A stretch of DNA of 64,000 nucleotides from an uncultured Gammaproteobacteria bacterium (GTDB lineage Bacteria; Patescibacteriota; Patescibacteriia; UBA9934), in the NCBI GenBank assembly GCA_964613815.1, contig CAZTKG010000001.1, positions 200,895 through 264,894 on the forward strand, given 5' to 3'. Made by a program: the position numbers and the translations under genes. Position 1 is the first letter of the stretch. The number at the start of each line of letters is the position of its first letter. Below, in pieces: positions 2,486 through 54,715 of this stretch. The notes under the pieces are model-generated. The model had not been told where the DNA came from and did not search any database. It worked only from the letters and a program-made list of their open reading frames with translations.

Positions 2486-3528
2486 ATCTTTAGATCCAGC
2501 TCTTCCATGAGCTTTTTTTGTTTTCTTGAGAGCTTCTTTGGCGTTACGACGTTGATGATGACAATCTGATCTCCCGCCGATCGGCCAGACTGGACGCCCT
2601 TTCCGCGAAGGCGAAGCTGATCTCCTGGCTGTGTTCCTGCGGGAATTTTTAGTTTTACTGATCCCTCGACGGTATCCACACTTACCTCATCGCCAAGTGC
2701 TGCCTGTGTGAATCCAATAGCCTTTTCGACATAGAGATCATTTCCATGCCGCTCGAATCTTGCGTCGTCGGTTACGCGAATGCGAATATAGAGATCTCCA
2801 GCTGGGCCGAGACTTCCGATAGATTCACCCTGACCTCGCACGCGGATTTTTACTCCTGTTTCTACGCCTGCAGGAAAATCTACTCTTAGTGTTTTTGATG
2901 CATGCACCGTTCCTGAACCCGAGCATGTCCCGCATTTCTTTTCTGGCTTCTCCCCTCTTCCGTTGCAGCTTGAACAGGAGACCCGCGACTTCATTGCTCC
3001 GAGAATCGTGCGCTGTATTGTCTCCTGCACACCTGATCCGTTGCAGATCTCACAGTTCTTCAGGGCTGACTCTGGTTCCCCACCTGTTCCCGCGCATCGT
3101 TCGCAGTTATCGTTTTTTGATAGTGAAATCTCCTTTTCTACGCCGAAGACAGACTCTTTAAAACTGATCGTGACATCTATTTGGATATCTGATCCTGATC
3201 TAGACCTTCGACCACGCGTTCGTCCGCCAAAGAAATCTCCAAATATATCCCCCAAGTCCTCGAAATGCATTCCCTGGAATCCTTGACCAAATCCGCCCAT
3301 CCCGCCAAAACCTTGCCCTCCTGGCCCTGCGGATCCGAATTGGTCGTACTGAGACCGCTTTGAATCATCCGAAAGAACCTGGTAGGCCTCGTTTATTTCC
3401 TTAAACTTCTCCGCGTCACCGCCCTTGTCTGGATGATGCTTATGCGCGAGGTTGCGAAAAGCACGCTTCATCTCATCTTTTGAAGCGCCTTTTTCTACCC
3501 CTAGAGTTTTGTAATAGTCTTTTGACAT
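2482..3528 (-). CDS. dnaJ: Molecular chaperone DnaJ
   Basis: J-domain with HPD (KDYYKTLGV...HKHHPDK), Gly/Phe-rich linker, four CxxCxGxG zinc-finger repeats, C-terminal substrate-binding domain. Confidence 0.95.
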   Translation of the reverse strand: MSKDYYKTLGVEKGASKDEMKRAFRNLAHKHHPDKGGDAEKFKEINEAYQVLSDDSKRSQYDQFGSAGPGGQGFGGMGGFGQGFQGMHFEDLGDIFGDFFGGRTRGRRSRSGSDIQIDVTISFKESVFGVEKEISLSKNDNCERCAGTGGEPESALKNCEICNGSGVQETIQRTILGAMKSRVSCSSCNGRGEKPEKKCGTCSGSGTVHASKTLRVDFPAGVETGVKIRVRGQGESIGSLGPAGDLYIRIRVTDDARFERHGNDLYVEKAIGFTQAALGDEVSVDTVEGSVKLKIPAGTQPGDQLRLRGKGVQSGRSAGDQIVIINVVTPKKLSRKQKKLMEELDLKI

Positions 3529-8150: not shown

Positions 8151-9818
8151 TTATTTAGCTCCTGCGAGCTGCTTCTTTTTGGCGGTTGACCACGAGGAAG
8201 CATTAAGCTTTTTGCGAGTTAGTAGTTGAGAGAAGTGCTCTCCACTGAGCATATTTGGCACAATGACGAACATTGCCCCCATTTCGTACATCTTTGCCAC
8301 GTCTGATGTTTTCTTTACCGTCACCACCACCTTCACCTTTGATTTTCGTGACTTCTTGTAGCTTAGGATATCTTGATTGATCTGGATATCTGGGATTGTG
8401 GATACAATCAGCTTTGCTTTTCCTGCCTGAATGGAGTCTAGGAACTCTTCGTTTCCAACATCTCCGTAGACATTTGGAATGCCCTTTTCTGAGAGCTCTG
8501 CCTGGAGGACTGGGTTGAAGTCGGCGACTGTGTAATTCTTTGTCATCTTTTTGATGGCTGGGAGAAGGGTCTCGCCCATGCCCTGGTAGCCGAAGAGGAG
8601 GACTTCGCTTGCTGGGGACTTTCGCTTCCTCTTTTCGATCTTTCCGACGCCCATCCATGAGAAGAGAAATTCTAACTTATCGTAAAGGAGTTCGTTGTAG
8701 GAAATGAGATAGGTGGAGAGTGTGATGGTGATGATGGCGACTAAGGTTGCCATGCTGACGATAGCGGGAGCGACAAGACCAACGGAAACAGCTGCAGCGA
8801 GGATAATGAAGGAGAATTCGCTGATTTGGGCGAGTGTGACGCCGGTGAGGAACCCTGCTCTTGGGTGATAGCCGAAGGCGCGGAGGATAAGGAGGAGGAT
8901 GATTGGGTTTCCGATGAGAACGAAGAGGCTGAAGATGATGGACTCATCGATGAAGCCGGTGATGTCGGAGAATGTGAGCTGGGTGCCGAGAATGATGAAG
9001 AAAATGATGAGGAAGAAGTCTCTGAGCGGACGGACGCGGCTGTTGATTTCTGACTGGAAGCCTGTTGATGCGAGGGAGACCCCTGCGAGAAGCGCGCCGA
9101 TTTCGATCCCGAATCCGATGAGGTGGAGGACGCTTGCGAGGGCGAAGCACCAACTAATAGCGACGAGGAAGAGAAGTTCTTGGTTGCGCGCAGCGTAGCG
9201 CATGAGGTGTGGGAGGATCCACTTTGCCGCAAGGTAGAGGAGGAAGAGGACGGCCGCTCCCTTGAGGAGAACGAAGGTGATGGCTCCTGTTAATGATCCT
9301 GATTCTGCGCCGAGACTGCTAATGACGAGCAGCGTGATCATAGCGACAAGGTCCTGGATGAGGAGGATGCCGATGCTGATACGGCCGTAGAAACGGTCTA
9401 GGTCTTCTTTGTCTGACAGGAGCTTTACGATGACGATCGTGCTTGAGAGGGCGAAGGCGAGGCCGAGGAGGAGAGCTGTTTGGGCGTGGAAGCCTAAGAG
9501 AAGGGCGATGCCGAAGCCTGCTAGGGTGGTAAAGAGAACTTGGCCTAGGCCTCCTATTATAGCGATCTTTCCGACGTCTTTTGCTTGTTGCCAGTGCAGG
9601 TTGAGCCCGACCAGGAACAACAAGAAAGCGATGCCGATTTCGCTTAGGGACTCGAACATGTGAGCTGACCCCGCTTCTGCGAGGAGATTTGGCCCGATTA
9701 ACAGCCCTGTAAGGATGTATGCGATGATGAGTGGCTGCTTGAGCCTGTATACGAGAAGGGATACGACGCCAGCCGTTACGATGACTGCGCCCATCTCGAT
9801 AAATGCCATGTCGATCAT
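8151..9818 (-). CDS. Cation:proton antiporter (CPA2/Kef-type) with C-terminal RCK/TrkA-N domain
   Basis: About 12 TM helices typical of the Na+/H+ exchanger fold, followed by a Rossmann-like RCK segment (EVLLFGYQGMGETLLPAIKK...). Confidence 0.85.
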   Translation of the reverse strand: MIDMAFIEMGAVIVTAGVVSLLVYRLKQPLIIAYILTGLLIGPNLLAEAGSAHMFESLSEIGIAFLLFLVGLNLHWQQAKDVGKIAIIGGLGQVLFTTLAGFGIALLLGFHAQTALLLGLAFALSSTIVIVKLLSDKEDLDRFYGRISIGILLIQDLVAMITLLVISSLGAESGSLTGAITFVLLKGAAVLFLLYLAAKWILPHLMRYAARNQELLFLVAISWCFALASVLHLIGFGIEIGALLAGVSLASTGFQSEINSRVRPLRDFFLIIFFIILGTQLTFSDITGFIDESIIFSLFVLIGNPIILLLILRAFGYHPRAGFLTGVTLAQISEFSFIILAAAVSVGLVAPAIVSMATLVAIITITLSTYLISYNELLYDKLEFLFSWMGVGKIEKRKRKSPASEVLLFGYQGMGETLLPAIKKMTKNYTVADFNPVLQAELSEKGIPNVYGDVGNEEFLDSIQAGKAKLIVSTIPDIQINQDILSYKKSRKSKVKVVVTVKKTSDVAKMYEMGAMFVIVPNMLSGEHFSQLLTRKKLNASSWSTAKKKQLAGAK

Positions 9819-11405: not shown

Positions 11406-11810
11406 CTACAGCGAGCCGAGCGGAACCTGCACGATGTCATATTCTCCGCATCTGGCGAGTTGCTGCCTAGCACAGTGTGCCGGGACCTCGTGGAATTCTC
11501 CGTGCATCTGAACGTATGTCGCTACCCATTCCGGAAGATCCTCTCTGCGCACTCTGCGGCAGCTGACCTCCCTCAAGAATTCGAATCGCTCTCTGAGAAC
11601 GGGGGCGCAGAGACGTGTCATTGCACCGATCTCGAAGCTGTTCACACTTCTGCCCACCATGTGAGTGAGGATGTCTTGAATCCCACCTATGTGGCGCGTT
11701 GAGAGCAATTGACCGGTTACAATGGAGAGGAGGTCGGAGAGGTGGAAAGCGCGAGCTTGCATATAAGTCCCCTTTTTTGTAGGCGATTTGTTGCGCAGCA
11801 AAGATACCAA
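11406..11810 (-). CDS. Hypothetical protein (GC-rich patch)
   Basis: 134-aa ORF, tandem with the 11878..12252 ORF on the same strand. No recognisable domain. Confidence 0.3.
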   Translation of the reverse strand: MVSLLRNKSPTKKGTYMQARAFHLSDLLSIVTGQLLSTRHIGGIQDILTHMVGRSVNSFEIGAMTRLCAPVLRERFEFLREVSCRRVRREDLPEWVATYVQMHGEFHEVPAHCARQQLARCGEYDIVQVPLGSL

Positions 11811-11877
11811 CTTTTTGCCGATTTGTCAATGCTATGGAGTAATTTTTGCCATAAAAAATTGCACGCCTTACTGCGTG

Positions 11878-19250: not shown

Positions 19251-21302
19251 CTACTCTCCTGTCTTTTTGATCGGTGGGAGGGGTGAGATCTCGCCGCTTG
19301 GCCTTGACTTGGCCGGCGCAGCATTGCTCGTTTCAGACCTTGGTCGGCGATCTTCTTCTGGCTTTCGGCGTCTTCGGCGGCGCTTTCTTGGCTGTCTGCC
19401 CGCAGATTCTGATGAAGTCTGTGGCGACTTTTGATCCTGCTCTGGTTTTTCTTCCTGTTTTAGCACCGCCTCTTTTGGCCTGGGTTTTTCTTGGTCAAAT
19501 TTAAGAGGAGTTGGTGCATCTACAGGCCTTGATTCTTGTTTTGCGACTGGCTTTGATGTGGGCACCTTTCGAGGCTCTTTGCGCTCTTCTTTCTTATCTG
19601 CTGGCGCTGCTAATGCGGAAAGTGAGATACTCTCCCCCACTTTTCGCTCGATCGGCTTGCTGTTTTCGATCTTTGGCTGTGGAGCTAGCGCTGGACGGTC
19701 CTGTCGAGGCGGTCGATCGTTTCGTGGTCGATCTTCTCGTGGTCGATCCTGCCGGCCCTGATCGCTGCGCGGAGGCTTTTGATCTCGCCCTCGATCGCGT
19801 CCGCCTCCGCCCTTTCGCCCCTTTTCTCGCTCTGCCTTGATTTTAGGCATGCAGTCTTCGCAGTAGATTGGCCTTGATCTGTCGAGTTCAACCGGGAGCT
19901 GGAAGTTCTTTTTGCATCCTGAACAGTCGTACGCGTGCCCAAAGCGCTGCTTCTTCATCTCCTTCTTCTTTGTTTTTGCCTTGGCGTATTCGTCGTCCAA
20001 GTCCACATCTTTTCCAAAACCACTCCAAATAGCGACCTTTTCTTCGATCTTGGCTCGCGGCGTCGTGTAACGCTCGCGTGACTGAGCAATGACCCGCTCT
20101 TCCGAGCCTGTCTTTTGTGCGATTGGTGGGAGCGTTGCTGCGGAGAACGGCTGCGATGTGACGCCATCGATCATTAATTTAAGATAAATGTTGAACTTTG
20201 GGAGGTTGATGATGTCCTCCGGTGTGAACCGTGGGAGGAATTCGTCTTCCATGAACTTTGCATCTGGACCACCCACGCGGAATGCAATCAGGGTCCCGAC
20301 GTTTCCAAATACTGCGTCTCGCACCTCTTCCGTGAGTTGTGCGATATACTGGTGCGCCATGACAAGGTTGAGTTTGTATTTTCGCGCCTCAGATAAGATT
20401 GATGCGAATGACTCAACAGCAAAGTTTTGAAACTCATCAACGTAGAGATAAAAGTCTGTTCTATCATCTTTTGCAGTGTCGACACGTTCCATCGCGGACA
20501 TCTGGATCTTGGTGATAAGCATTCCTCCAAGGAGGCGAGACGCGTCCTCTCCAAGTCGCCCCTTTGAAAGGTTTACGATGAAGATTTTTTCCTCGTCCAT
20601 GATCTTTCGAACGTTGATGGAGGAATTTGCTTGCGCGACAATGTTTCGAATAATTGCTGCGGACAAAAACTGACCGACCTTGTTTTGAATCGGCGCTACC
20701 GCCTCGGTGGCGAATTTTTGTTGGTAGGAGGCGAACTCTTTGACCCAGAATTGTTTGACAATTGGATCTGTGACATTTGAGACGATTTCTTTTCTATAGA
20801 CCTCGTCTGAAAGCATGCGGTTGATGCCGAGGAGGGTTGTTCCAGGGTTGTCGATAAGGGCAAGAATGGCGTTGTTGAGGATGTATTCCATTCGTGCAGA
20901 CCAGACGCCTTCCCAGATTTTTTTGAAGACACTCATCATGCCCGCTGCGACGAGATGCTTCATGTTGGCGTCGACGGATTCGAGAATGTTGAATCCGACT
21001 GGATGTTCCAGGTCGCCTGGATTGAAGTAGACGACGTCGTTGATACGCCAGGATGGGATGTAGTCGAGGAGGAGCTCTGCCGTGTCTCCGTGTGGGTCGA
21101 CGTATGCACAGCCGTGGCCGGCGTAAATATCGGACAGGATCATGTTCTCGAGGAGCGTCGTCTTTCCCATGCCGGTTTTTCCGATGACGTAGGTGTGACG
21201 GCGGCGATCATCTGTTTTAATGCCAAATTTCCGCAAGGAGTTGCGGAAGTTTGTTTTGGCAAAATAGATAATGTCGTCTTCGTGTTCGTGCGGATATTGC
21301 AT
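19251..21302 (-). CDS. VirD4/TraD/TrwB-like coupling-protein ATPase with C-terminal zinc ribbon and Arg/Asp-rich tail
   Basis: Walker A VIGKTGMGKTT, Walker B FYLYVDEFQNF, sensor region VMAHQYIAQL. C-terminal CSGCKK...CEDC zinc-ribbon-like and an RDRGRDQKPPRSDQGRQDRPREDRPRNDRPPRQDRP low-complexity tail. Confidence 0.7.
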   Translation of the reverse strand: MQYPHEHEDDIIYFAKTNFRNSLRKFGIKTDDRRRHTYVIGKTGMGKTTLLENMILSDIYAGHGCAYVDPHGDTAELLLDYIPSWRINDVVYFNPGDLEHPVGFNILESVDANMKHLVAAGMMSVFKKIWEGVWSARMEYILNNAILALIDNPGTTLLGINRMLSDEVYRKEIVSNVTDPIVKQFWVKEFASYQQKFATEAVAPIQNKVGQFLSAAIIRNIVAQANSSINVRKIMDEEKIFIVNLSKGRLGEDASRLLGGMLITKIQMSAMERVDTAKDDRTDFYLYVDEFQNFAVESFASILSEARKYKLNLVMAHQYIAQLTEEVRDAVFGNVGTLIAFRVGGPDAKFMEDEFLPRFTPEDIINLPKFNIYLKLMIDGVTSQPFSAATLPPIAQKTGSEERVIAQSRERYTTPRAKIEEKVAIWSGFGKDVDLDDEYAKAKTKKKEMKKQRFGHAYDCSGCKKNFQLPVELDRSRPIYCEDCMPKIKAEREKGRKGGGGRDRGRDQKPPRSDQGRQDRPREDRPRNDRPPRQDRPALAPQPKIENSKPIERKVGESISLSALAAPADKKEERKEPRKVPTSKPVAKQESRPVDAPTPLKFDQEKPRPKEAVLKQEEKPEQDQKSPQTSSESAGRQPRKRRRRRRKPEEDRRPRSETSNAAPAKSRPSGEISPLPPIKKTGE

Positions 21303-28185: not shown

Positions 28186-28220
28186 CACCCCACCTCGACC
28201 ACGGTGGAGATGGGGTGAAA
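28186..28220. repeat. Family-1-related solo hairpin
   Basis: caccccacctcgaccacggtggagatggggtg (variant of cccatctcgacc...ggagagat) forming its own hairpin. Confidence 0.4.
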
Positions 28221-28333
28221 ATACGTCATGATTACGCTTTTGACCTCTCCTTCTTGACAAAATTACTATTTTGTGATATCTTTGTATGTTCCCAAGTACC
28301 TTCCCTGAACTGCGACTGCCCATAGGAGGCAAT

Positions 28334-28624
28334 ATGTTCGCTATCTTCGCCCGCGTCTCGGCCCCGGCCAAGACCCTCGAGCGCGCCAATGCGCTCGTCA
28401 ACTCCGACGCCGCTGACGAGACCGCAAAAGCGCGTTTGAGCCCGCAAAAGCGTGCGGATCTGTGGCTCATGGCCGCGTTATACGCCTTCGCTTCCGTGCT
28501 CTTCTCGCACCCGTTCGCGGGCGCGAACGTCGCTGGCCCGATCGGCGCCCTGCTGATTCTTCCGTTCGTTGAGCACTGCCTGAAGTGCTGGTGGCGGGTC
28601 GACTACACGCCCACTACGAGCTGA
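28334..28624 (+). CDS. Hypothetical small membrane-associated protein
   Basis: Start chosen at the ATG preceded by AGGAGGcaat (MFAIFARVSAPAK...); the ORF-track start is 28286. Hydrophobic C-terminal half. Confidence 0.4.
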   Translation: MFAIFARVSAPAKTLERANALVNSDAADETAKARLSPQKRADLWLMAALYAFASVLFSHPFAGANVAGPIGALLILPFVEHCLKCWWRVDYTPTTS

Positions 28625-28647
28625 TCCTAGCATCAGCTCGTGGCCGC

Positions 28648-35385: not shown

Positions 35386-36675
35386 ATGAACATCAACATC
35401 GAGGATCCAGAAATCGCAAGCCTACTTAATGATGAACTCAAACGTCAGCAGGACGGGCTTGAAATGATTCCTTCCGAGAATTTCGTGAGCCAGTCTGTGC
35501 TTGATGCGCTTGGGTCAATTGCGACCAATAAATATTCTGAGGGGTATCCTGGGAAGCGGTATTACGGTGGATGTGAGTACGTGGATAAGATCGAACGGAT
35601 TGCGCAGGAGCGGGCGAAGGCGCTGTTTGGAGTGACGCATGCGAATGTACAGAGTTACAGTGGATCGCCGGCGAATCAGGCGGTGTATTATGCGCTTTTG
35701 GAACCTGGGGATACGGTGATGGGGATGCATCTTTACTATGGCGGGCACATGACGCATGGGTTGAAGGTGAATTTTTCTGGGACGATGTATAACTCTGTCC
35801 AATATCAAACGCGCCGGGATGGGTATCTTGATTTGGATGCAATGGATGCGATGGCGCAGGAGCATAAGCCGAAGATGATCATTGTTGGCGCGACGGCGTA
35901 TCCTCGGATTTTTGACTGGCAGGCTTTGAAGGAGATCGCGGATCGGGCTGGGTCTATTTTGATGGCGGATATTTCGCATATTTCTGGGCTTATTGTTGGA
36001 GGTCAGCATCCGACGCCTTGCGGGATTGCGGATGTGGTGACGACGACGACGCATAAGACGTTGCGCGGGCCACGGGGGGCGATGATTTTGTGTAATGGGA
36101 ATCCGTCTACACCACTCAAGAAGGTTAAGAAGACGCGGGAGAATATTCCGACGTTGATTGATCGTGCGATTATTCCTGGACTTCAAGGGGGGCCGCATAA
36201 TCATAAAACCGCGGCGATTGCGGTGGCTTTGAAGGAGGCTGCGGATGAATCATTTAAAGACTATGCGGCGCAGATTGTGGTGAATGCGAAGGCGCTTGCG
36301 GCGGAGATGATGGAGCGTGGGTTTGATTTGGTGACCGGGGGGACGGATAATCATCTTTTACTTTCTGATCTAACGAATAAAGGCGTGACTGGGAAGCAGG
36401 CGGAGGCGGCGCTTGATAAGGCTGGGATTACGGTGAATAAGAATACGGTGCCATTTGATCCGCGGAGTCCGTTTGATCCGAGTGGGATTCGGCTGGGGAC
36501 GCCGGCGCTTACGACGCGGGGGATGAAAGAATCGGAAATGAAGATGATTGGGGCGTGGATTGATCGGGCGGTGAGGGATTTTGATGACGCGGAAAAGCTT
36601 GAGGAGATTCGTGCGGAAGTGGAGGAGATGACGGCGAAGTTTCCGCTGTATGCGGGGACGAGTTATATTCAATAA
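35386..36675 (+). CDS. glyA: Serine hydroxymethyltransferase GlyA
   Basis: 429 aa; PLP-lysine region VVTTTTHKTLRGPRGAMIL, conserved SHMT N-terminus. Confidence 0.95.
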   Translation: MNINIEDPEIASLLNDELKRQQDGLEMIPSENFVSQSVLDALGSIATNKYSEGYPGKRYYGGCEYVDKIERIAQERAKALFGVTHANVQSYSGSPANQAVYYALLEPGDTVMGMHLYYGGHMTHGLKVNFSGTMYNSVQYQTRRDGYLDLDAMDAMAQEHKPKMIIVGATAYPRIFDWQALKEIADRAGSILMADISHISGLIVGGQHPTPCGIADVVTTTTHKTLRGPRGAMILCNGNPSTPLKKVKKTRENIPTLIDRAIIPGLQGGPHNHKTAAIAVALKEAADESFKDYAAQIVVNAKALAAEMMERGFDLVTGGTDNHLLLSDLTNKGVTGKQAEAALDKAGITVNKNTVPFDPRSPFDPSGIRLGTPALTTRGMKESEMKMIGAWIDRAVRDFDDAEKLEEIRAEVEEMTAKFPLYAGTSYIQ

Positions 36676-36690
36676 TCGTCATCCGCCTCG

Positions 36691-36778
36691 CTCCCATCTC
36701 GACCGAGCGAAGCGAGTGGAGAGATCTCTTCGAACTCGAATAGCTGCGAGATCTCTCCACTTTGGTCGAGATGGGACA
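36691..36778. repeat. Family-1 palindromic repeat, copy G
   Basis: ctcccatctcgaccgagcgaagcgagtggagagatctct, loop, gagatctctccactttggtcgagatgggacagg. Confidence 0.85.
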
Positions 36779-36803
36779 GGAAGAAAATGCTTATCTTCAA
36801 AAA

Positions 36804-36827
36804 ACTGGCTAAAATAGCCGGTTTTTT
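36804..36827 (+). terminator. glyA rho-independent terminator
   Basis: ctggct-aaaa-tagccgg stem-loop followed by TTTTTTG. Confidence 0.45.
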
Positions 36828-36838
36828 GTCTTTTTTAC

Positions 36839-36867
36839 TTGACAAAAGGCGTTTTTTGTGCTATTCT
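36839..36867 (+). promoter_or_regulatory. Sigma-70-like promoter at the AT-rich/GC-rich boundary of the cassette-like island
   Basis: TTGACA (36839-36844), 17-nt spacer, TATTCT (36862-36867). Confidence 0.4.
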
Positions 36868-36888
36868 TAGCTGTTCTTTGAACGCTAA

Positions 36889-37519
36889 ATGCCTACGCTA
36901 CCCCCACCCAATTCTGGATATCCCATGCGCCCCGAACCCTCCATTCTTCGCGCCAGCCTTGCCCTCCCGCTCTTCGGCGTCATTCTCACCGGCATCTTCC
37001 ACAAGTTCCCCGCGGACTTCAACCCGTGGATCATGTACGGCGTCTTCCTCGCCTGCATGGGGGGCGCTCATCTATGCCTTCATTCGTGACGATCGTTATA
37101 TCGTCCTGCGATTCCTGATCGAGAATGATGAGAAGGGCATCTACAGCCTCCCGTTCATGGCAGCTGTGGATCGCCTGAAGAAGCATGACCCGAAGGTGCA
37201 TGCGCTGATCCTCGGCCATGCGAATATGCAGGATGCTGTCGTGGATGGACTGAAGCACTTGCTCATGCGCACACGAGCGCATCGAGCAGATCACCTCGGC
37301 CCGACCTGCGTCGAATTCCACCAGACGGTTCTGACCCTCTGCACGCTCGCTCGTAGCATCCCGCCCTCTCGCTTCGCTGCCCTCCTCGATGACCAGAGCG
37401 GGCCATGGATGGAGCTGATGATCGACCTTCTGAACAGCTACTCTGTACAAGCCCTGCATGAGCGGCGACTTCCGCTGCTCCACTGCCTGGAGATCAAGAA
37501 TCGACTGATCCCCCGCTGA
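36889..37519 (+). pseudogene. Hypothetical membrane-anchored protein, apparently frameshifted at a G6 tract near 37053
   Basis: Frame A 36889..37089 (MPTLPPPNSGYPMRPEPSILRASLALPLFGVILTGIF...) and frame B continuing to 37519 (ALIYAFIRDDRYIVLRFLIENDEK...) join at atggggggcgc. The ORF-track 36839 start lies inside the promoter and is not credible. Confidence 0.3.
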
Positions 37520-37526
37520 GGCACTT

Positions 37527-37612
37527 GCCGAGGACCCAAGCTTAGCTTGGGCGCCTCGGCAGTCTTACTGAGATGCATTCGTGCACTCTGAGGACTTCCT
37601 TCACCCCCTTCT
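37527..37612 (+). repeat. Conserved inter-cassette junction, copy 1 (GC hairpin + AGTCTTACTG + CTGAGGAC..CTTCAC + GAGGAGA SD)
   Basis: gCCGAGGaCCCaAGCTtAGCTtGGgcGCCtCGGCAGTCTTACTG...CTGAGGACttccTTCAC...GAGGAGAactcaATG; near-identical to the 38234..38332 junction. Confidence 0.7.
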
Positions 37613-37639
37613 TCAACACTGCTCAACGAGGAGAACTCA

Positions 37640-38227
37640 ATGAGCCCCCCTACGACCATCCGCGAATACTATGACCTTCTCGGCCAGGAGCTTGATGTTT
37701 CCTGGCCTGGATGGCGCAACTTCCGCAGCGTCCATCTCCGCGGCTCCCCCATCATGGTGATGGGGTGGCTGAGCGATGATCGCACTATCCTCATGGATAG
37801 CCTCACCGCGGCGGAATCACGCCTGCTTGGAGGCGGCTTCGGGTTCAAGTACCCCGATTCGTGCAACTGCGTCGTAAGGACGCCTGATCCGCGTCCAGAC
37901 TGCGCGGCCGATGAATGGCCCGATGTATGGATCTGGTCTCAGATTCGTCACGGCGGCTTGCGGGACTCTGACCGCATCCTGGCTCGCAAGGAGCTGCTCC
38001 GTCGCAGTCCCAACGAGCCCACTCTCGGACGTGTAGCGCTCAACGACGCGTTCGCGTGGCGGCACAATTACCATGACAGGTACAACCGCGCGCTCGCGAA
38101 GATCGTTAGCGAGACGATCGGCGCCGATGCGCTCATCGACATGATCGAGCGTGACATGACCAGTGGCGAAGACCAGTGCATGCCCCTCGACTGGTCGGAG
38201 CGTACCCTCCTGCTCCTTCGGGGATAA
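37640..38227 (+). CDS. Hypothetical protein (cassette 2 of GC-rich island)
   Basis: 195-aa ORF preceded by the conserved junction and a GAGGAGA SD. No recognisable domain. Confidence 0.45.
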   Translation: MSPPTTIREYYDLLGQELDVSWPGWRNFRSVHLRGSPIMVMGWLSDDRTILMDSLTAAESRLLGGGFGFKYPDSCNCVVRTPDPRPDCAADEWPDVWIWSQIRHGGLRDSDRILARKELLRRSPNEPTLGRVALNDAFAWRHNYHDRYNRALAKIVSETIGADALIDMIERDMTSGEDQCMPLDWSERTLLLLRG

Positions 38228-38233
38228 CAACCC

Positions 38234-38320
38234 CTTCTTGCCGAGGGCCCGAGCTCAGCTCGGTGCCCTCGGCAGTCTTACTGGCGCGCGAAATCCTTCG
38301 CGCTCCTGAGGACCCCTTCA
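38234..38320 (+). repeat. Conserved inter-cassette junction, copy 2
   Basis: gCCGAGGgCCCgAGCTcAGCTcGGtGCCcTCGGCAGTCTTACTG...CTGAGGACcccTTCACtcGAGGAGActATG. Confidence 0.7.
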
Positions 38321-38332
38321 CTCGAGGAGACT

Positions 38333-38743
38333 ATGTCTCAGCGTATCCTCAACCTTTCTGGACGAGCCATCCCAGCATCACTTCGCCAAGTTGGTGTCGT
38401 GGACCCGGAAGGCGCCGTCACGCTCGGCCTCGTTCTTGAGGCAATTCGGAACGACCCGTCCAACCTGTATGATCAGCATGTGTCGCTGCTCCTTGCCGCG
38501 GCACGGCAAGCGAGCATTCGGTTCGTGTGGATCGGTATCACCCTCTTCATGCAGCAGACCGTGGATGCGCTCAGCGTCGCCGGTTTCGTCCCGGTTCGTC
38601 TCGAGTTCCTAGATGCGGGCATACGCAGGACTCTGGACGCCTCCGGTGTCGATGGTGCTCAGATGCGGCTCAACTACCGCTTCCGGCCCTTCCTCCAGAA
38701 CGATCCAGTGCCAGAGATCACCTTCGGGATGTCTCTCGGCTGA
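38333..38743 (+). CDS. Hypothetical protein (cassette 3 of GC-rich island)
   Basis: 136-aa ORF unrelated in sequence to cassette 2, same junction upstream. Confidence 0.45.
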   Translation: MSQRILNLSGRAIPASLRQVGVVDPEGAVTLGLVLEAIRNDPSNLYDQHVSLLLAAARQASIRFVWIGITLFMQQTVDALSVAGFVPVRLEFLDAGIRRTLDASGVDGAQMRLNYRFRPFLQNDPVPEITFGMSLG

Positions 38744-38756
38744 GCTCATCAGTATC

Positions 38757-38812
38757 GAGCCTCGTGATCGCAAAGACCCCGCGTCTTGCGATGCGAGGCC
38801 TTCTTTTTTCTC
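38757..38812. terminator. Bidirectional terminator between the island and the convergent permease gene
   Basis: gagcctcgtgatcgcaaagaccccgcgtcttgcgatgcgaggcc long hairpin followed by ttcttttttctc. Confidence 0.5.
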
Positions 38813-38822
38813 TTTATTTTTG

Positions 38823-39959
38823 CTATGTCACGATCATCATGATGATTCCTGTGATAAATACGAGTGCACAGGCATACATGGTCCAGCTTGGGACTTTGAA
38901 CGCACGCTTCGTGGTTGTGGCGTGTTTTTTTGCGGATAAGTATGTGGCGATGATGAGGAGACTTGCACAACCGCCGAAGACGCCGCCGACGAAGCCGACG
39001 ACTTCGATGAATTCTCGGATGTTTAGAAGGAAGAGGGCCATAGGGACGGAAATAACGACGGCCCAGCTAGTCATGTAGCGGCGTTTGTAGTCGATGGTGA
39101 GCATGTCCATGAAGGACATTCCGAGAATCAGGAAACTCGTGAAGACGGAGAAGAGGCCGATGAGGGAGCCGATGAGGAGGACCCATTCGCCGACGACGGC
39201 GCCGAGGCCGGTGATGGCGTCTTGGGTGGTTCCGGCGCCGCTTACGGCGACGATAATGCCGGTGAAAATAAGGTAGACGACGGATACGATGGCGACGCCG
39301 GTGATGATAGCTCTTGGGAGGAGGCGTTTTTGGCGGCCGAGGACTTGAGCCATTTCTGGGACAACGGCGGCTCCACCTAAGGCAAATATCACGACACCGA
39401 ATGGGGTGAACCAGTGGTCTGTGGTTATGGAGGTGAGGTTTGTGAGGTCAATGTGAGGAGTGGATCCTGTGAGGATCAGTGCCAGGAGGATGAATAATAG
39501 GGCCACAAAGATCCCCTCTAGGCGGACGATGAAGCCGAGGCCTCCGATGAGGAGGAGGCTGCAGATTGTGTAGAAGATGATTTGGTAGGTGAATACGGAG
39601 CCTCCGAGGAGCGGCGAGATGAGGGCGTGGAGGAAGCCGCCGCCGAGGATGAGGTATGCGAGAAGGGCTCCCCAGCTGCTTGCGGCGATGGTGATGAAGG
39701 CGGCCCAGGTCCAGTGTTTGCCGAGGTATTTTTTGGTGAGGCCGGCGAGGTGGTGTTTGCCGCGGGTTGTGACGATGACTTCGCTGTAGGCAGCGAGGAC
39801 GAGCATGTAGACGAGGGCGAGGGCGACGAGCCAGGTAGCGCCGATCGCGAATCCTGATTGCGAGAAAACGTAAGGGAGCCCGAAAATTCCGACGCCGATG
39901 ACGGAACCGATGAAGGGCTGGACAGCGCGCCAGAATACCCTCTTTTTTGCAGATATCAT
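38823..39959 (-). CDS. Amino-acid permease (aromatic amino acid / Aa_trans-like, 11 TM)
   Basis: 378 aa polytopic; N-terminal FWRAVQPFIGSVIGVGIFGLPYVFSQSG is typical of Trp/Tyr-permease-family transporters. Confidence 0.75.
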   Translation of the reverse strand: MISAKKRVFWRAVQPFIGSVIGVGIFGLPYVFSQSGFAIGATWLVALALVYMLVLAAYSEVIVTTRGKHHLAGLTKKYLGKHWTWAAFITIAASSWGALLAYLILGGGFLHALISPLLGGSVFTYQIIFYTICSLLLIGGLGFIVRLEGIFVALLFILLALILTGSTPHIDLTNLTSITTDHWFTPFGVVIFALGGAAVVPEMAQVLGRQKRLLPRAIITGVAIVSVVYLIFTGIIVAVSGAGTTQDAITGLGAVVGEWVLLIGSLIGLFSVFTSFLILGMSFMDMLTIDYKRRYMTSWAVVISVPMALFLLNIREFIEVVGFVGGVFGGCASLLIIATYLSAKKHATTTKRAFKVPSWTMYACALVFITGIIMMIVT

Positions 39960-39986
39960 AAGGAAATTATATCACAGGCTTCCTCT

Positions 39987-40038
39987 TCCCCATCTCGACC
40001 GAAGTGGAGAGATCTCTCGACTTCGCTCGAGATGGGAA
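39987..40038. repeat. Family-1 palindromic repeat, copy H (compact, no loop)
   Basis: ccccatctcgaccgaagtggagagatctctcgacttcgctcgagatgggaag; between the permease and dnaB. Confidence 0.85.
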
Positions 40039-40098
40039 GTGCTTTTGATGAATACGGGTAGCATTTGCGATTGCGGTGGATTGGGTTAATATGGGGCC

Positions 40099-41541
40099 AT
40101 GACTGATCGCGCGGGAAAAATCCCTCCTCAAAGTATTGAGGCGGAAGAATCGCTTCTGGGAGCCATTTTGACGGACTCGGAATCGCTTATTAAAATTGTT
40201 GATGTTTTAAAGGCGGAGGACTTTTATAAAAATGCCCATTCGCGTGTGTATGGGGCGATTGTGGAATTGTATGAGCGGCATGAGCCGGTTGATTTGTTGA
40301 CGGTTGGAAATCGGCTTGAGGAGTCGGACATGCTTAAGTACATCGGCGGGCGGACGACGCTTGTGGAACTGACGAACAAGGTGGCTTCGGCGGCGCATCT
40401 TTCGCATTACGCCGAAATCATTCAAAAGAAGGCGACATTGCGGCGGCTGATTCGGACGGCTGGAGAGATTGCGGAGATGGGATATGACGAGGGGGAGGAT
40501 GTGGATATTTTGATCGATGAGGCGGAGCAGAAGCTTTTTAATGTTTCTGGGCACTTTGTGAAGCAGGCATTTACGCCGATTCGGTCTGTTTTGAGTGGGG
40601 CGTTTGAGCGGATTGATGAGCTGCATAAGAATCGAGGGCAGTTGCGCGGGCTTCCGACGGGGTTTATTGGCGTGGATAATCTTCTCGCTGGACTTCAGCG
40701 GTCTGACCTTGTGATTCTCGCGGCGCGTCCTGCGGTTGGAAAGACAAGTTTTGCGCTGGATATTGTGCGAGCGGTTTCGCTGAAAACGAAGCAGCCTGTT
40801 GGCCTGTTTTCGCTGGAGATGAGTAAGGAGCAGCTTGTGGATAGAATGATTTGTGCAGAAGCGAATATTGACTTGTGGAAAATGCGTACGGGGCGGCTTA
40901 GTGAGAAGGATGATGACTTTCCTCGCATCGGTGAGGCGCTTGCGAAGTTGAGTGAGGCGCCGATCTTTATTGATGACTCTGGAATGGCGAACATTATGAC
41001 CATTCGTACGAAGACGCGGCGGCTGAAGGCGGAGCATGGACTTGGAATGATTGTGATTGATTATTTGCAGCTCATGGATGGGCGGAAGTCTGGAGAGAAC
41101 CGAACGCAAGAAATTTCTGAGATCAGTCGAGGCTTGAAGCAGATTGCGCGTGAACTTGATGTCCCGGTTCTTGCGCTCTCGCAGCTTTCTCGTGCGGTAG
41201 AACAGTCTAAGCCTGCGATTCCTAAGCTATCTCACCTTCGTGAATCTGGGTCGATTGAGCAGGATGCGGATGTGGTGATGTTTATGTATCGAAAGGCGGC
41301 GGACAGAAACTATCAGCCGGAGGAGTTGACGCCTGATGAGAAGAACACGGGTGAGCTCCATATTGCAAAGCATCGTAATGGGCCGACAGGGATGGTACGA
41401 TTGTTTTGGGATGCGAAACGTGCGAGTTTTCGTAATCTTGAGCAGCGCCAGATGGCACCGCAAGGGCAGGCACATAATCCAGCGAATGTTGGACTCCCGC
41501 CTGGGATGGCGCCAAAACAATCTGCTCCCGTAAATCAGTAA
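40099..41541 (+). CDS. dnaB: Replicative DNA helicase DnaB
   Basis: 480 aa; N-terminal domain (SIEAEESLLGAIL), Walker A ARPAVGKTSFAL, RecA-like motifs (IDYLQLM, SQLSR). Confidence 0.95.
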   Translation: MTDRAGKIPPQSIEAEESLLGAILTDSESLIKIVDVLKAEDFYKNAHSRVYGAIVELYERHEPVDLLTVGNRLEESDMLKYIGGRTTLVELTNKVASAAHLSHYAEIIQKKATLRRLIRTAGEIAEMGYDEGEDVDILIDEAEQKLFNVSGHFVKQAFTPIRSVLSGAFERIDELHKNRGQLRGLPTGFIGVDNLLAGLQRSDLVILAARPAVGKTSFALDIVRAVSLKTKQPVGLFSLEMSKEQLVDRMICAEANIDLWKMRTGRLSEKDDDFPRIGEALAKLSEAPIFIDDSGMANIMTIRTKTRRLKAEHGLGMIVIDYLQLMDGRKSGENRTQEISEISRGLKQIARELDVPVLALSQLSRAVEQSKPAIPKLSHLRESGSIEQDADVVMFMYRKAADRNYQPEELTPDEKNTGELHIAKHRNGPTGMVRLFWDAKRASFRNLEQRQMAPQGQAHNPANVGLPPGMAPKQSAPVNQ

Positions 41542-43286: not shown

Positions 43287-43480
43287 AGGCGGTTTGTGGC
43301 CGAACTATAGCGTAAAACGGGGAAAAATCAAGCTTTTTTGGGGAAAACTTGGAGATAGGGGAAAATGTCCATAAAACATTGACAAAATGGGGGTTTTGTG
43401 GTATTTTGTGGCGTTGATCTTTGTCAATTTCACCCCGAATTTGCGCGGTTTCCGTGCAATTTTTCCAACCTGGAGAATCC

Positions 43481-45460
43481 ATGTCCCCCAATCCCTCATT
43501 CCTCGACCGCGCAGAAGGCGCAGCGTTCGACACCATCGGGCAGCACAAGCTGTCACACGGCGATGAGATCCTGGGCTCGCTTCTGCTCAAGCTGCACCTC
43601 CCGGGTGCACGCGGCGCAGAGCTGATGTTCCATGGCAACGACGACAACCTCCCCGAAGGCCCCGAGCATCTGCACGTCGGCATCGGCGGCGGGATGTTCG
43701 ACGAACATCGCGCGGAAGGACGGCTGCCGAATACGTGCAGTGCGGTTCTTGTCGCAGAAGCGCTCGAGATCGCGGATGCGCCCGAACTGCAGCTTGTCCT
43801 CAACGAGGCGCTGCGCGCGGACACAACTTCTGGTCAGCAGACCATGGAGCTCGCGCAGATGATCAAGACGCTGAACTCCCATGGCGATCAGGTCAAGGCG
43901 TCCGACAATCCAGACCTCCGCGTCTGGAAGATGGCGGCGCGGGCCTACCTTGCCGTGATCAACCAGCAGCGTGGCGACGAGCCGCGCGAACTCGACGTCG
44001 AGCAGATGCAGGTCCCGGAGAACTCGTGTCTCCCGGAACTCACCAAGAACAACCGAGCGAAGCAGCGGATCGATACCTTGATCCTCCCGGCGTTCTGCGA
44101 AATCCGCGCGCTCGCGCAAGCGAAGCTCCTGAAATGGTACGGATACGAGGGCTGGAACATGCCCGAGGACTCTGACCGACTGGAGATCGTTTTCGTGCGT
44201 ACCCAGCGTCAGCTGGAGCGCGAGATCCGCGCCTCGGACTATCGCTGTATCGTGATCGGTATCGAAGGAGGGCAGGTCCCTCCAACGATGACGGTCAGGC
44301 GGCTCGCCAAAGACCTCAAGGTCCGGTGGGTCAAGGAGATGCTGCGCGTGTTCCTGCGCGAGTGTCATCGGTGGGACCGCTACGGCCCCGATGGCTACGA
44401 ACCCGACGACGGCGGCGAGAGCCCCGACTACGACAGCCGGCGGTGGGTCCGCCCCCTCGAGCTCGTCAACTTGGTCAGCTGGCTCAATGGCTGGTCCAAG
44501 ATGGGTCCGGTGGAGATCTGGGACTACGTGGAAGAGGTGTTCGACGCCGTCTTCCGTGAGAGTCAGAACTTCTGGGAGGTCTGTCCCGCGCAGTTCAAGC
44601 GACGTGCCTTTGTGACGTCGTTCCCACTTCCGGAATCCTGTCGCGTTCGCATCGTGCCCGAAGTCGTCGAGAACATCCACGACGACGAAGACGAATACGA
44701 CGCGGACATCGACGGTCCGCGCGGCCTGATCGAGACGGTTTCGGCAGGCGTCAAGCTCCTTGAAGGACCCGCACCTGAGGCGCCGGAACAGCGGCTGAAG
44801 ATCTGTATCGTGTTCACCAACAACTCGGTGATGCACAAGTATGCGAGAGCGATCGAAGGCTGTCATGTGGTCATCGTGCGCAACAGCCGCCGTCAGGTTC
44901 AGCTGTTCACACATCGAGATCACAAGATGGCGGCACGGTATGCTGCAGCAGCCATCAGCCTGCTGGAGCACGTCGTCGCAGAGCAGGACCATGACCTCGA
45001 GGCGCAGTGGGCCCATATCTGTGAGATCGCTCGAACTGGACGTGGTCGCAACCTCCTCGGCGCAGCGTCCCACTGGTATGCGCATGATGTGGCCGGAAGT
45101 GTCCTCAACGGTTCCCTGACACATCCCGAGGTCCCGGCAACGAAACTCGATGATCACGAGCTCGTCGAAATGGTCCTCGCCGCTGCCGCTGCGTATGTAG
45201 GCGACTTCGCAGCCCTTCAGGACGCACAATTCGACGCTGCGTCCCGACTTGCCACGGGTCAGAAGTCCTCAACCGAGGAAGAGATCGCCACCGTGCACGA
45301 CAACGTCGCAGATCTCTTCGACTACATCAAGGGCCTTCGGCTCGTGATGGCGGATGAGGGCGACGAGGCCGTGACCGAGGACGACACCGAAGTCGATGAG
45401 GATGCGACCGAGGTCGAAGTCGACCTGCAGGCAGATTTCGACCCCACCTCCGACGAGTAG
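43481..45460 (+). CDS. Large hypothetical protein (659 aa) with acidic C-terminal tail; GC-rich, likely horizontally acquired
   Basis: Start at the ATG preceded by GGAGaatcc; ORF track begins at 43421. Weak promoter-like TTGGAC-N18-TATTTT upstream. No recognisable domain; C-terminus DEGDEAVTEDDTEVDEDATEVEVD. The antisense 558-aa ORF is judged spurious. Confidence 0.5.
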   Translation: MSPNPSFLDRAEGAAFDTIGQHKLSHGDEILGSLLLKLHLPGARGAELMFHGNDDNLPEGPEHLHVGIGGGMFDEHRAEGRLPNTCSAVLVAEALEIADAPELQLVLNEALRADTTSGQQTMELAQMIKTLNSHGDQVKASDNPDLRVWKMAARAYLAVINQQRGDEPRELDVEQMQVPENSCLPELTKNNRAKQRIDTLILPAFCEIRALAQAKLLKWYGYEGWNMPEDSDRLEIVFVRTQRQLEREIRASDYRCIVIGIEGGQVPPTMTVRRLAKDLKVRWVKEMLRVFLRECHRWDRYGPDGYEPDDGGESPDYDSRRWVRPLELVNLVSWLNGWSKMGPVEIWDYVEEVFDAVFRESQNFWEVCPAQFKRRAFVTSFPLPESCRVRIVPEVVENIHDDEDEYDADIDGPRGLIETVSAGVKLLEGPAPEAPEQRLKICIVFTNNSVMHKYARAIEGCHVVIVRNSRRQVQLFTHRDHKMAARYAAAAISLLEHVVAEQDHDLEAQWAHICEIARTGRGRNLLGAASHWYAHDVAGSVLNGSLTHPEVPATKLDDHELVEMVLAAAAAYVGDFAALQDAQFDAASRLATGQKSSTEEEIATVHDNVADLFDYIKGLRLVMADEGDEAVTEDDTEVDEDATEVEVDLQADFDPTSDE

Positions 45461-45548
45461 AAGCGTCACGCTCCTCGTCTTATCTTCCCCCCTTGGGAGC
45501 CCCAGTGGCTTCTGAGGGGGGATGTTTGTATAAAAAGAAGCCTCTTTG

Positions 45549-54623: not shown

Positions 54624-54715
54624 ATGCCCTCCTTGGCAAAGAACTGTGGGAGAATATCAGCTCCTGCGATTCTTGTCAATCCTTTTCTGACAAGCGGGTT
54701 CGTGGTACGAATAAG

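Follow-up and report, generated by a model that had tools for sequence, protein, structure and literature searches.

What joins the genes of a small GC-rich island that lies between glyA and an amino-acid permease gene in the bacterial contig CAZTKG010000001.1? The island occupies positions 36839-38810 (~1.95 kb, plus strand) of the 64-kb stretch of DNA analysed in this study (hereafter the window), and its three open reading frames (ORF1, ORF2 and ORF3) are separated by two structured spacers, junction 1 (37520-37639) and junction 2 (38228-38332). A first description, made from the letters without database searches (the sequence-only reading), presented the locus as cassette-like, i.e. as unrelated genes linked by conserved junctions. 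Our analysis has confirmed this observation, which far exceeds what chance would produce. The island's foreign, modular character is supported, both by its composition and by the presence of ORF2-family genes at scattered loci, whereas the idea that the junctions are cassette recombination sites is not. We tentatively favour the view that the island is an acquired operon whose spacers may act in cis on the mRNA, each combining a decay barrier or processing site with an open ribosome-binding site.

Structure of the two junctions

The two junctions had been described as near-identical within a structured block, and this was borne out: 47 nt of the block align at 85% identity. Past ~17-22 nt that cannot be aligned, the junctions also share CTGAGGAC, CCTTCAC and the arrangement GAGGAGA-N5/N2-ATG. 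The non-alignable part had been taken for a variable stretch of ~20 nt; it is indeed variable, but it is not a plain linker, being the apex of a second hairpin (HP2), the base of which is formed by AGTCTTACTG and CTGAGGAC(T). The elements of the junctions are as follows:

37527-37560, extendable to 37525-37562, plus strand: junction 1, first hairpin (HP1), GCCGAGG...CCTCGGC, 15 pairs, -27.3 kcal/mol, z -5.2
37561-37596, plus strand: junction 1, HP2, base AGUCUU/GAGGACU, with bulges and a UUCG-loop apex, -12.2 kcal/mol, z -2.3
37598-37639, plus strand: junction 1, leader and Shine-Dalgarno sequence (CCTTCAC at 37598-37604, GAGGAGA at 37628-37634)
38240-38273, extendable to 38238-38275, plus strand: junction 2, HP1, -34.3 kcal/mol, z -7.4
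38275-38313, plus strand: junction 2, HP2, same base, apex GCGCGAA-AUCC-UUCGCGC, -19.6 kcal/mol, z -3.9
38315-38332, plus strand: junction 2, leader and Shine-Dalgarno sequence (CCTTCAC at 38315-38321, GAGGAGA at 38324-38330)

When the whole junctions were compared with shuffled sequence, the fold z was -3.7 for junction 1 and -6.4 for junction 2. HP1 is 34 nt long and starts 5-10 nt past the stop codons of ORF1 and ORF2; its two copies differ by one compensatory A-U to G-C change and by a register shift that still pairs. The sides of the HP2 base, AGUCUU(A)CUG and CUGAGGAC(U), are conserved in both junctions, and the apices (UGCA-UUCG-UGCA in junction 1 versus that given above for junction 2) share no alignable sequence and form the same bulged stem-loop. 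A U.G pair in the HP2 base becomes an A.C mismatch on the other strand, and the base stem of junction 2 is missing from the minus-strand fold. In both spacers the hairpins and the leader together span the distance from just past the stop codon to the Shine-Dalgarno sequence. These features suggest that the spacers are two copies of one RNA module of ~80-110 nt, in which structure appears to be what is kept.

No U-tract follows HP1 (the next sequence is AGUCUUACUG), and the terminator scan did not call this hairpin, whereas it did call those that end glyA and the island. A U-tract is present in the latter two terminators and in those of the remaining GC-rich modules of this genome. HP1 thus does not qualify as a canonical terminator, and transcription of ORF2 and ORF3 would require read-through. 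A perfect hairpin located just past a stop codon and upstream of a real terminator was also observed in another GC-rich module of the window (28614-28643).

The module is read in different frames in its two copies and is therefore non-coding; the possibility of a junction-encoded peptide was rejected on the same grounds, and junction 1 contains an in-frame stop codon. A known ribozyme or riboswitch was likewise dismissed, since a search of Rfam 15 (cmscan of 36000-40500, E<=10) gave no match overlapping either junction, all matches being far below the gathering scores. Adenines are not preferentially affected by the differences between the copies (A>G, T>C, G>T and C/G), and a diversity-generating retroelement was rejected on these grounds; the Pfam annotation and scans of the window revealed no reverse transcriptase domain. 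A single frame (38225-38335) runs from the TAA stop codon of ORF2 through the 35 sense codons that make up junction 2 to the ATG of ORF3, and read-through of this stop codon would yield an ORF2-ORF3 fusion. Junction 1, too, has a length divisible by three (41 codons), but with an in-frame TGA.

Organization and composition of the island

The three plus-strand ORFs (36889-37519, 37640-38227 and 38333-38743) were recovered at the coordinates first reported for them. The island and its left flank are organized as follows:

36675: end of glyA
36686-36776: host palindromic repeat of ~90 nt, between glyA and its terminator
36798-36828, plus strand: intrinsic terminator of glyA, the left boundary of the island (14-pair stem, then a T-tract)
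36839-36867, plus strand: island promoter TTGACA-N17-TATTCT with a TG extension (10/12 matches plus TG)
36889-37089, plus strand: 5' part of ORF1 (frame 1), with two predicted hydrophobic segments and a premature stop codon after the frameshift; GC content at third codon positions (GC3) 0.73
37060-37065, plus strand: frame-change site of ORF1, a run of six G (G6); removal of one G gives a 210-aa ORF
37061-37519, plus strand: 3' part of ORF1 (frame 2), GC3 0.71
37640-38227, plus strand: ORF2, 195 aa, member of an uncharacterised all-helical family
38333-38743, plus strand: ORF3, 136 aa, orphan, GC3 0.69
38759-38809, plus strand: intrinsic terminator of the island (stem 38759-38799, T-tract 38800-38809)

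The promoter, placed at the island boundary by the sequence-only reading, is thus present, near-consensus and TG-extended. It is one of two promoter-like sites in the region 36400-40200 (the other belongs to dnaB), and neither junction holds one. The right boundary of the island, formed by its terminator, is 14 nt short of the stop codon of the convergent permease gene. This terminator had been described as bidirectional; its U-tract is present on the plus strand only, so it is not a canonical bidirectional one. With a single promoter at its start, a single terminator at its end and neither promoters nor canonical terminators in between, the unit is predicted to yield a tricistronic transcript.

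The GC content of the island (0.58-0.63) exceeds the window mean of 0.52 (sd 0.044), and the GC3 of its ORFs (0.69-0.75) that of glyA, dnaB and murC (0.54-0.57), while their third-position purine bias (strand skew) is reversed relative to the adjoining genes. The description of the island as GC-rich was thus correct, and GC, GC3 and strand skew all deviate from the neighbouring genes. The AT-rich surroundings from which it was said to emerge were not found: the flanks have ~50% GC, and the AT-rich stretch is limited to the promoter and terminator spacer. Taken as signs of horizontal acquisition, GC, GC3 and purine bias all point the same way. Direct repeats flanking the island were not detected in the repeat search of the window, in which tRNA targets were not searched for.

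Two trivial explanations were rejected. An assembly chimera is contradicted by the fact that assemblies from ENA, JGI and Logan, which come from several samples, contain the identical island together with its frameshift. Spurious plus-strand ORFs, such as might arise in GC-rich DNA, are contradicted by the order GC3 > GC1 > GC2 in frame, by proper Shine-Dalgarno spacing and by the protein homologues of ORF2.

ORF1 had been read as frameshifted, and its two frames do meet at the G6 run, with the hydrophobic helix of the protein continuing across the frame break. As the G6 run is the same in all independent assemblies, the frameshift is real, and represents either a pseudogene or a slippage-prone site; ORF1 thus appears to be inactivated or phase-shifted at this run. 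In the run SRR8062323 two contigs abut at 37050/37051, ~10 nt ahead of the G6 run, a break that may reflect run-length heterogeneity (phase variation). No match to ORF1 was found in Pfam, PHROGs, PADLOC, phage records or viral contigs; the same applies to ORF3, which retrieved only itself among 5.8 billion clustered proteins. ORF1, ORF2 and ORF3 show no similarity to one another, in agreement with the initial description of the proteins as unrelated, and on this basis (ORF1b, ORF2 and ORF3 compared) we rejected an origin by tandem duplication of a gene together with its spacer.

Genomic context in related bacteria

The best matches of glyA (75-77% identity) are named Patescibacteria or Candidatus Uhrbacteria, and we conclude that the host of the island is a Patescibacteria genome close to Uhrbacteria. 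The relatives keep both flanking gene blocks, murB-murC-glyA and permease-DnaB-YbaB-RecR, and the DNA between the blocks varies from one relative to another (other genes or rearrangements). None of the relatives examined carries ORF1-3, although they are too distant for the insertion borders to be fixed from them. Absence from relatives that retain the flanking genes is a further sign of horizontal acquisition. As judged from these comparisons of sequence, the island probably sits at a rearrangement-prone seam and is most simply regarded as a compositionally foreign, horizontally acquired transcription unit. The permease gene, in spite of its high GC3, was rejected as a member of the island: the permease-DnaB adjacency is conserved while the island is missing in the relatives, and the gene is therefore native.

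The ~90-nt host palindromic repeat mentioned above belongs to a family (core CCCATCTCGACCGAAGTGGAGAGATCTC, arms 96% complementary) whose copies at 36686-36776 and 39982-40037 bracket the segment containing the island and the permease gene; a partial copy is found near 28195-28215.

A comparative study of 125 Patescibacteria genomes recorded hundreds of genomic islands and transferred genes (PMC12455944). Like those islands, the present one is a deviant block of hypothetical genes set among housekeeping genes of a streamlined genome of the candidate phyla radiation (CPR). Unlike them, it is only ~2 kb long and no mobility genes were found in its Pfam-covered ORFs.

The ORF2 family

The sequence-only reading had proposed a homology search with the two complete proteins. 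For ORF2 this was productive, and for ORF3 no homologue was detected among the clustered proteins or in the family, phage and viral searches. ORF2 has no close homologue (only itself among the 5.8 billion clustered proteins), and nothing in Pfam, PHROGs or PADLOC matched it. When 1.84 billion representatives were searched exhaustively with HMMER, four remote homologues with 25-36% identity (E 5e-13 to 1e-4) came to light; a fifth match, to a spurious repeat protein, was dismissed. The alignment of the five sequences contains 24 invariant columns, including WP, GG, CxC and W-H-H-YN-A-T-G-RD, and the AlphaFold model built from it is all-helical (predicted local distance difference test, pLDDT, 75; predicted template modelling score, pTM, 0.70). 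Neither the model nor the alignment matched PDB sequences, PDB folds or viral folds. ORF2 is a real protein from a very small, uncharacterised family.

The four homologues come from four other genomes and occupy four different loci with housekeeping neighbours:

L040, 295-930: homologue on a short contig of 2 kb
L041, 8001-8675: homologue flanked by dprA and by a gene for a TSP3-repeat protein, the latter gene lying directly downstream of pth
L045, 8001-8627: homologue adjoining a class II aminoacyl-tRNA synthetase gene
L048, 5058-5552: homologue downstream of dcd, which itself follows the rplK-rplA cluster

The homologue genes have 60-66% GC and GC3 of 0.82-0.86 whatever the GC content of the host, and their flanks, where measurable (L041, L045 and L048), have 39-51% GC; the extreme GC3 is thus kept despite an amino-acid identity of 25-36%. 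A promoter of the same type precedes each gene (TTGACAAAAGGCGTTTTTTGTGCTATTCT in the window, TTGACAATTTGGCTAATTTGTGCTATATT in L041, TTGACAAACGGCTGATTTTCTGATATTTT in L040, TTGACAAACCGGCGACTTGGTGTTATCTT in L045 and TTGACAAAACCCTGTTTTTATGATATCTT in L048). A GGAG-type Shine-Dalgarno sequence is present ahead of all four homologues, a G-poor leader in L040, L041 and L048, and a terminator-like hairpin with a U-tract after each of them. The CCTTCAC...AGGAGA leader is common to junction 1 and to the homologue of L041. In L048 an unrelated 217-aa orphan precedes the homologue across a plain 30-nt spacer devoid of hairpins, and in the other three loci the homologue stands alone, with no partner gene. 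Neither HP1 nor HP2 was found at the borders of the four homologues (blastn, word size 7). ORF2 thus behaves as an evolutionary module, but, with no HP1 or HP2 at the borders, the hairpin junction is not its travelling companion.

Several other features were recorded at these loci. In L041 the 8-mer CTGAGGAC also occurs within the stem of the terminator behind the homologue (8692-8699), and the 225-nt GC-rich leader contains CTCGGCAG and CCTTCAC in the order of junction 1; this sharing of CTGAGGAC, CTCGGCAG and CCTTCAC may reflect faint homology or coincidence. A palindrome family different from that of the host (core GAGTCGATCGACTC) lies on either side of the L041 island. Downstream of the L040 homologue there are tandem multi-hairpin segments (945-1120 and 1203-1375) with a period of 258 nt, each copy of which ends in GTCGGAAGCTAAGCTTCCGAC, and their AAGCTnAGCTT core resembles the apex of HP1 of the window; a related 3' segment (CACGACyCCCGTCGTGGCA..GATACCCC) lies behind the homologue of L048. 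L048 also contains a 158-aa ORF (2979-3455, ~59% GC, no Pfam match) between rplA and dcd, where rplJ would be expected.

Occurrence of the junction motif

The 17-mer CCTCGGCAGTCTTACTG is present in exactly two copies in the 64 kb, versus 0.09 expected (up to 3 mismatches allowed), and beyond these two copies the junction motif was not found in the window or in related loci (blastn, word size 7). Among viral contigs the 17-mer had four matches, none of them with HP1, and the HP1 pattern had none. The gapped HP2 pattern matched twice in genome contigs, four times in metagenome contigs and five times in viral contigs, never with HP1 and several times within coding sequence. The scan of genome contigs covered one genome for each of 185,579 species, and its two matches fit a rough chance expectation of a few, estimated from the pattern length and the collection size. 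The scan of the metagenome collection missed the JGI contigs of the window itself, so the negative result there is weaker than it looks. A search for the motif in the genome and in metagenomes had been proposed by the sequence-only reading; the viral, genome and metagenome scans gave no real copies.

Two intergenic matches, L016 (741-790, in an Actinomycetota metagenome-assembled genome) and L018 (949-998, minus strand, in a metagenome contig), consist of GGCAGTCTTACTGCGG, a hairpin-capable stretch and CTGAGGAC. The contigs are high-GC and unrelated and share only a 16-mer, with no HP1, wider homology or Rfam match, and we judge their resemblance to HP2 to be due to chance.

According to the sequence-only reading, the cassette interpretation would be undermined if the motif were unique to this locus and the ORFs formed a conserved syntenic operon in relatives. 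The motif is indeed unique to the locus in the sequences scanned, but no such operon exists in the relatives examined (glyA 75-77% identical), which lack the island altogether.

Variation in content between related arrays, another expectation, was not observed. The same content was found wherever the locus was spanned among 16-18 contigs (ENA, JGI and Logan) carrying an exact glyA, ORF2, ORF3 or permease protein, although these contigs represent a single population and so provide a weak test. At least 10 contigs from the three sources end inside HP1 of junction 2 (38240-38271), and none inside HP1 of junction 1. One scaffold (L002, 10602-10720) bridges HP1 of junction 2 by an N-gap with poly-G/C junk, and at unrelated loci (L043, L048 and L049) ordinary perfect palindromes are likewise places where short contigs stop. 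The contig ends in junction 2 are therefore probably a hairpin-induced sequencing or assembly artefact.

Comparison with known systems

The island resembles integron cassette arrays, including clusters of attC sites lacking integron integrases (CALIN), in having small, mostly orphan, promoterless ORFs in one orientation and of atypical composition, which are split by structured, imperfectly palindromic elements whose ends are conserved and whose centre varies. In contrast to such arrays, it contains only two copies of the junction, none of them after the last ORF, HP1 pairs almost perfectly and so differs from an attC-type stem, a promoter belonging to the array lies at its edge, and content does not vary in the sampled contigs. 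As already suspected from the sequence, the junctions do not fit the attC consensus: the core boxes RYYYAAC (R'') and GTTRRRY (R') are absent from the stem ends, and the conserved ends are instead CTTGCCGAGG and CCTCGGCAGTCTTACTG...CTGAGGAC.

The reported lack of a nearby integrase also held for the ORFs covered. Domains of Phage_integrase, of other recombinases or of transposases were absent from the precomputed Pfam annotation (window ~27.6-48.2 kb) and from Pfam scans of 27 further ORFs (mostly >=150 aa) in the rest of the 64 kb, which left out some housekeeping ORFs (e.g. DnaK, DnaJ, SecD and ClpB) and ORFs of <150 aa outside 27.6-48.2 kb; no IntI was found in the 64 kb. No junction copy precedes ORF1 or follows ORF3, the latter being followed by an unrelated intrinsic terminator.

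Repetitive extragenic palindromic (REP) sequences occur in tens to hundreds of dispersed copies per genome and carry a family-specific 5' tetranucleotide, and the REP located between malE and malF of Escherichia coli is an intercistronic palindrome which stabilises the upstream mRNA. In common with REPs and bacterial interspersed mosaic elements (BIMEs), the island has a stable, U-tract-less hairpin just past the stop codon inside an operon, from which protection of the upstream message against 3' exonucleases and differential expression would be expected; HP1 (34 nt, non-coding) is also an imperfect palindrome of 20-40 nt. It differs from them in that the motif is present only twice in 64 kb, each time within the island, and is coupled to a second hairpin and to the leader of the next gene.

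The put RNAs of phage HK022 (putL and putR) are two adjacent hairpins present in two similar copies. Like these RNAs and the RNase III sites of phage T7, the junctions are repeated, structure-conserved stem-loops between cistrons of one predicted transcript; unlike them, they have no phage context or homology and no downstream terminator to override. By analogy, the spacer may be likened to REP stabilisers and phage processing hairpins, although its copy number and sequence features make it a member of neither group.

Possible roles of the junctions

In the model that we tentatively favour, the strong extended -10 promoter (36839) would drive three cistrons through to the terminator at 38759-38809, and HP1 together with HP2 would block 3'-to-5' exonuclease decay and/or mark an endonuclease site. 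The message would thereby be segmented, so that each cistron would receive its own stable piece and its relative expression would be set. The G-poor leader (CCTTCAC...) would keep the next GAGGAGA site unpaired in a GC-rich, structure-prone RNA and launch translation. We infer that the module may act at the RNA level, as a stabiliser or processing element, and the model is also in line with the presence of a G-poor leader and an AGGAGA-type Shine-Dalgarno sequence ahead of ORF2 homologues elsewhere.

Several observations weigh against this model. The single transcript and the RNA ends at the hairpins are predictions from the DNA sequence. With two copies, the support from compensatory change is anecdotal, and the corresponding shuffle control (242/500) was uninformative. 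The fold of HP1 is as good on one strand as on the other, in DNA as in RNA, which leaves some probability for a role at the DNA level. L048, the closest multi-gene relative, joins its genes by the plain 30-nt spacer, so operons of this sort do not in general need the hairpin module. Finally, with ORF1 frameshifted, the operon may be decaying, and the conservation of the spacers need not mean current function.

A role during transcription itself, in which the double hairpins would act as put-like read-through RNAs or as U-tract-less attenuators stepping expression down from ORF1 to ORF3, accounts for the two abutting stem-loops in two similar copies per unit (as in putL and putR), for the extreme stability of HP1 right after each stop codon and for the lack of internal promoters. 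An antiterminator would, however, have no terminator to override between the junctions and the final one, and HP1 lacks a U-tract, the Rfam search was negative, there is no phage context, and the phage and viral searches were empty; we regard such a role as unlikely. The two copies might instead be mere passengers, either a REP-like palindromic repeat, or one resembling a miniature inverted-repeat transposable element (MITE), that was brought in with the operon from a GC-rich donor genome, or the product, now functionless, of internal duplication or gene conversion. Intercistronic spacers are typical sites of REP/BIME palindromes, the host has an unrelated palindromic repeat family beside the island and ORF1 is already broken, all of which would suit this explanation. 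It fits poorly with the two near-chance matches, neither with HP1, across 185,579 species genomes, with the replacement of the HP2 apex while the fold was kept (unexpected under neutral decay) and with the precise bounding of both copies by stop codon and Shine-Dalgarno sequence, and we consider it slightly less likely still.

The junctions could also be DNA-level recombination or joining sites of a non-integron cassette system, with units added singly by a recombinase encoded elsewhere. This would explain why the ORFs are small, unrelated, uncharacterised, devoid of promoters of their own and in one orientation, and why ORF2-family genes are found at different loci with different partners; moreover, HP2 resembles attC in that its outer boxes are conserved, its centre is variable yet palindromic and some of its bases are bulged, HP1 can fold on either strand, and the contig breaks of three assembly sources fall in the junction 2 hairpin. 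These breaks are matched at ordinary palindromes elsewhere and accompanied by the poly-G/C-filled N-gap, which points to an artefact. The motif is missing from all other scans and from the borders of the four ORF2 homologues, there is no copy at either end of the array, the RYYYAAC and GTTRRRY boxes are absent, no recombinase or transposase domain was detected among the ORFs covered, and content is identical in every locus-spanning contig found. Such a system is, in our opinion, improbable. We see no more than a slight chance that the island is a piece of an undescribed Patescibacteria-specific, integrase-less gene shuttle, in which GC-rich genes (GC3 above 0.8 in the ORF2 homologues) would move as self-contained modules built of a TG-extended consensus promoter, a G-poor leader, the ORF and a terminator, and several modules could be concatenated via hairpin junctions left as scars of joining or recombination.

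A class of promoter-led GC-rich modules

The island does not appear to be an isolated case. The 64 kb contain five exact TTGACA-N14-TGNTAT sites, located at 11804-11829 (minus strand), 28254-28279 (plus), 36839-36864 (plus), 43379-43404 (plus) and 54654-54679 (minus), and nine sites when one mismatch is allowed (versus 0.86 expected). All five exact sites precede DNA of the 89th to 99.8th GC percentile (P ~1e-5 for random placement). The ORFs behind them are accessory or uncharacterised: a DUF7736 protein, a 96-aa orphan, the present island, a 659-aa orphan, and a protein with a weak SET domain plus AAA_28. Judged by this layout, the island is probably one of at least five promoter-led, terminator-ended GC-rich modules in the window. 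No description of this combination (a TG-extended promoter with a high-GC3 module) was found in PMC12455944.

The 659-aa ORF (43481-45460, no Pfam match) is contained in a second island (43379-45530, 60-64% GC) of the same layout, with a consensus promoter, leader, GGAGA Shine-Dalgarno sequence, ORF and terminator, located between folD and an unannotated ORF. A 683-aa ORF with type IV secretion coupling-protein domains (TrwB_AAD_bind, T4SS-DNA_transf and TraG-D_C) was noted ~16 kb upstream of the ORF1-3 island (19251-21302, minus strand).

Conclusions

The junction described here is a fresh sequence example, in two copies, of a known kind of element, and as such it is of modest interest; the surrounding pattern of GC-rich modules is the more promising lead. 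If the junctions do act at the RNA level, they would provide a further example of intercistronic hairpins partitioning a polycistronic mRNA, in this case in Patescibacteria, for which, to our knowledge, almost nothing is known about mRNA processing. The ORF2 family was found solely in such GC-rich modules (in this and four other genomes, among ~15 billion proteins). Should the improbable shuttle exist after all, the lasting GC-richness of the modules would point either to a pool of GC-rich donors that has escaped notice or to a feature that the modules themselves maintain. By its simple sequence signature, the module pattern could serve to recognize recent gene acquisitions in CPR genomes, and it raises a testable question concerning the origin of these genes.

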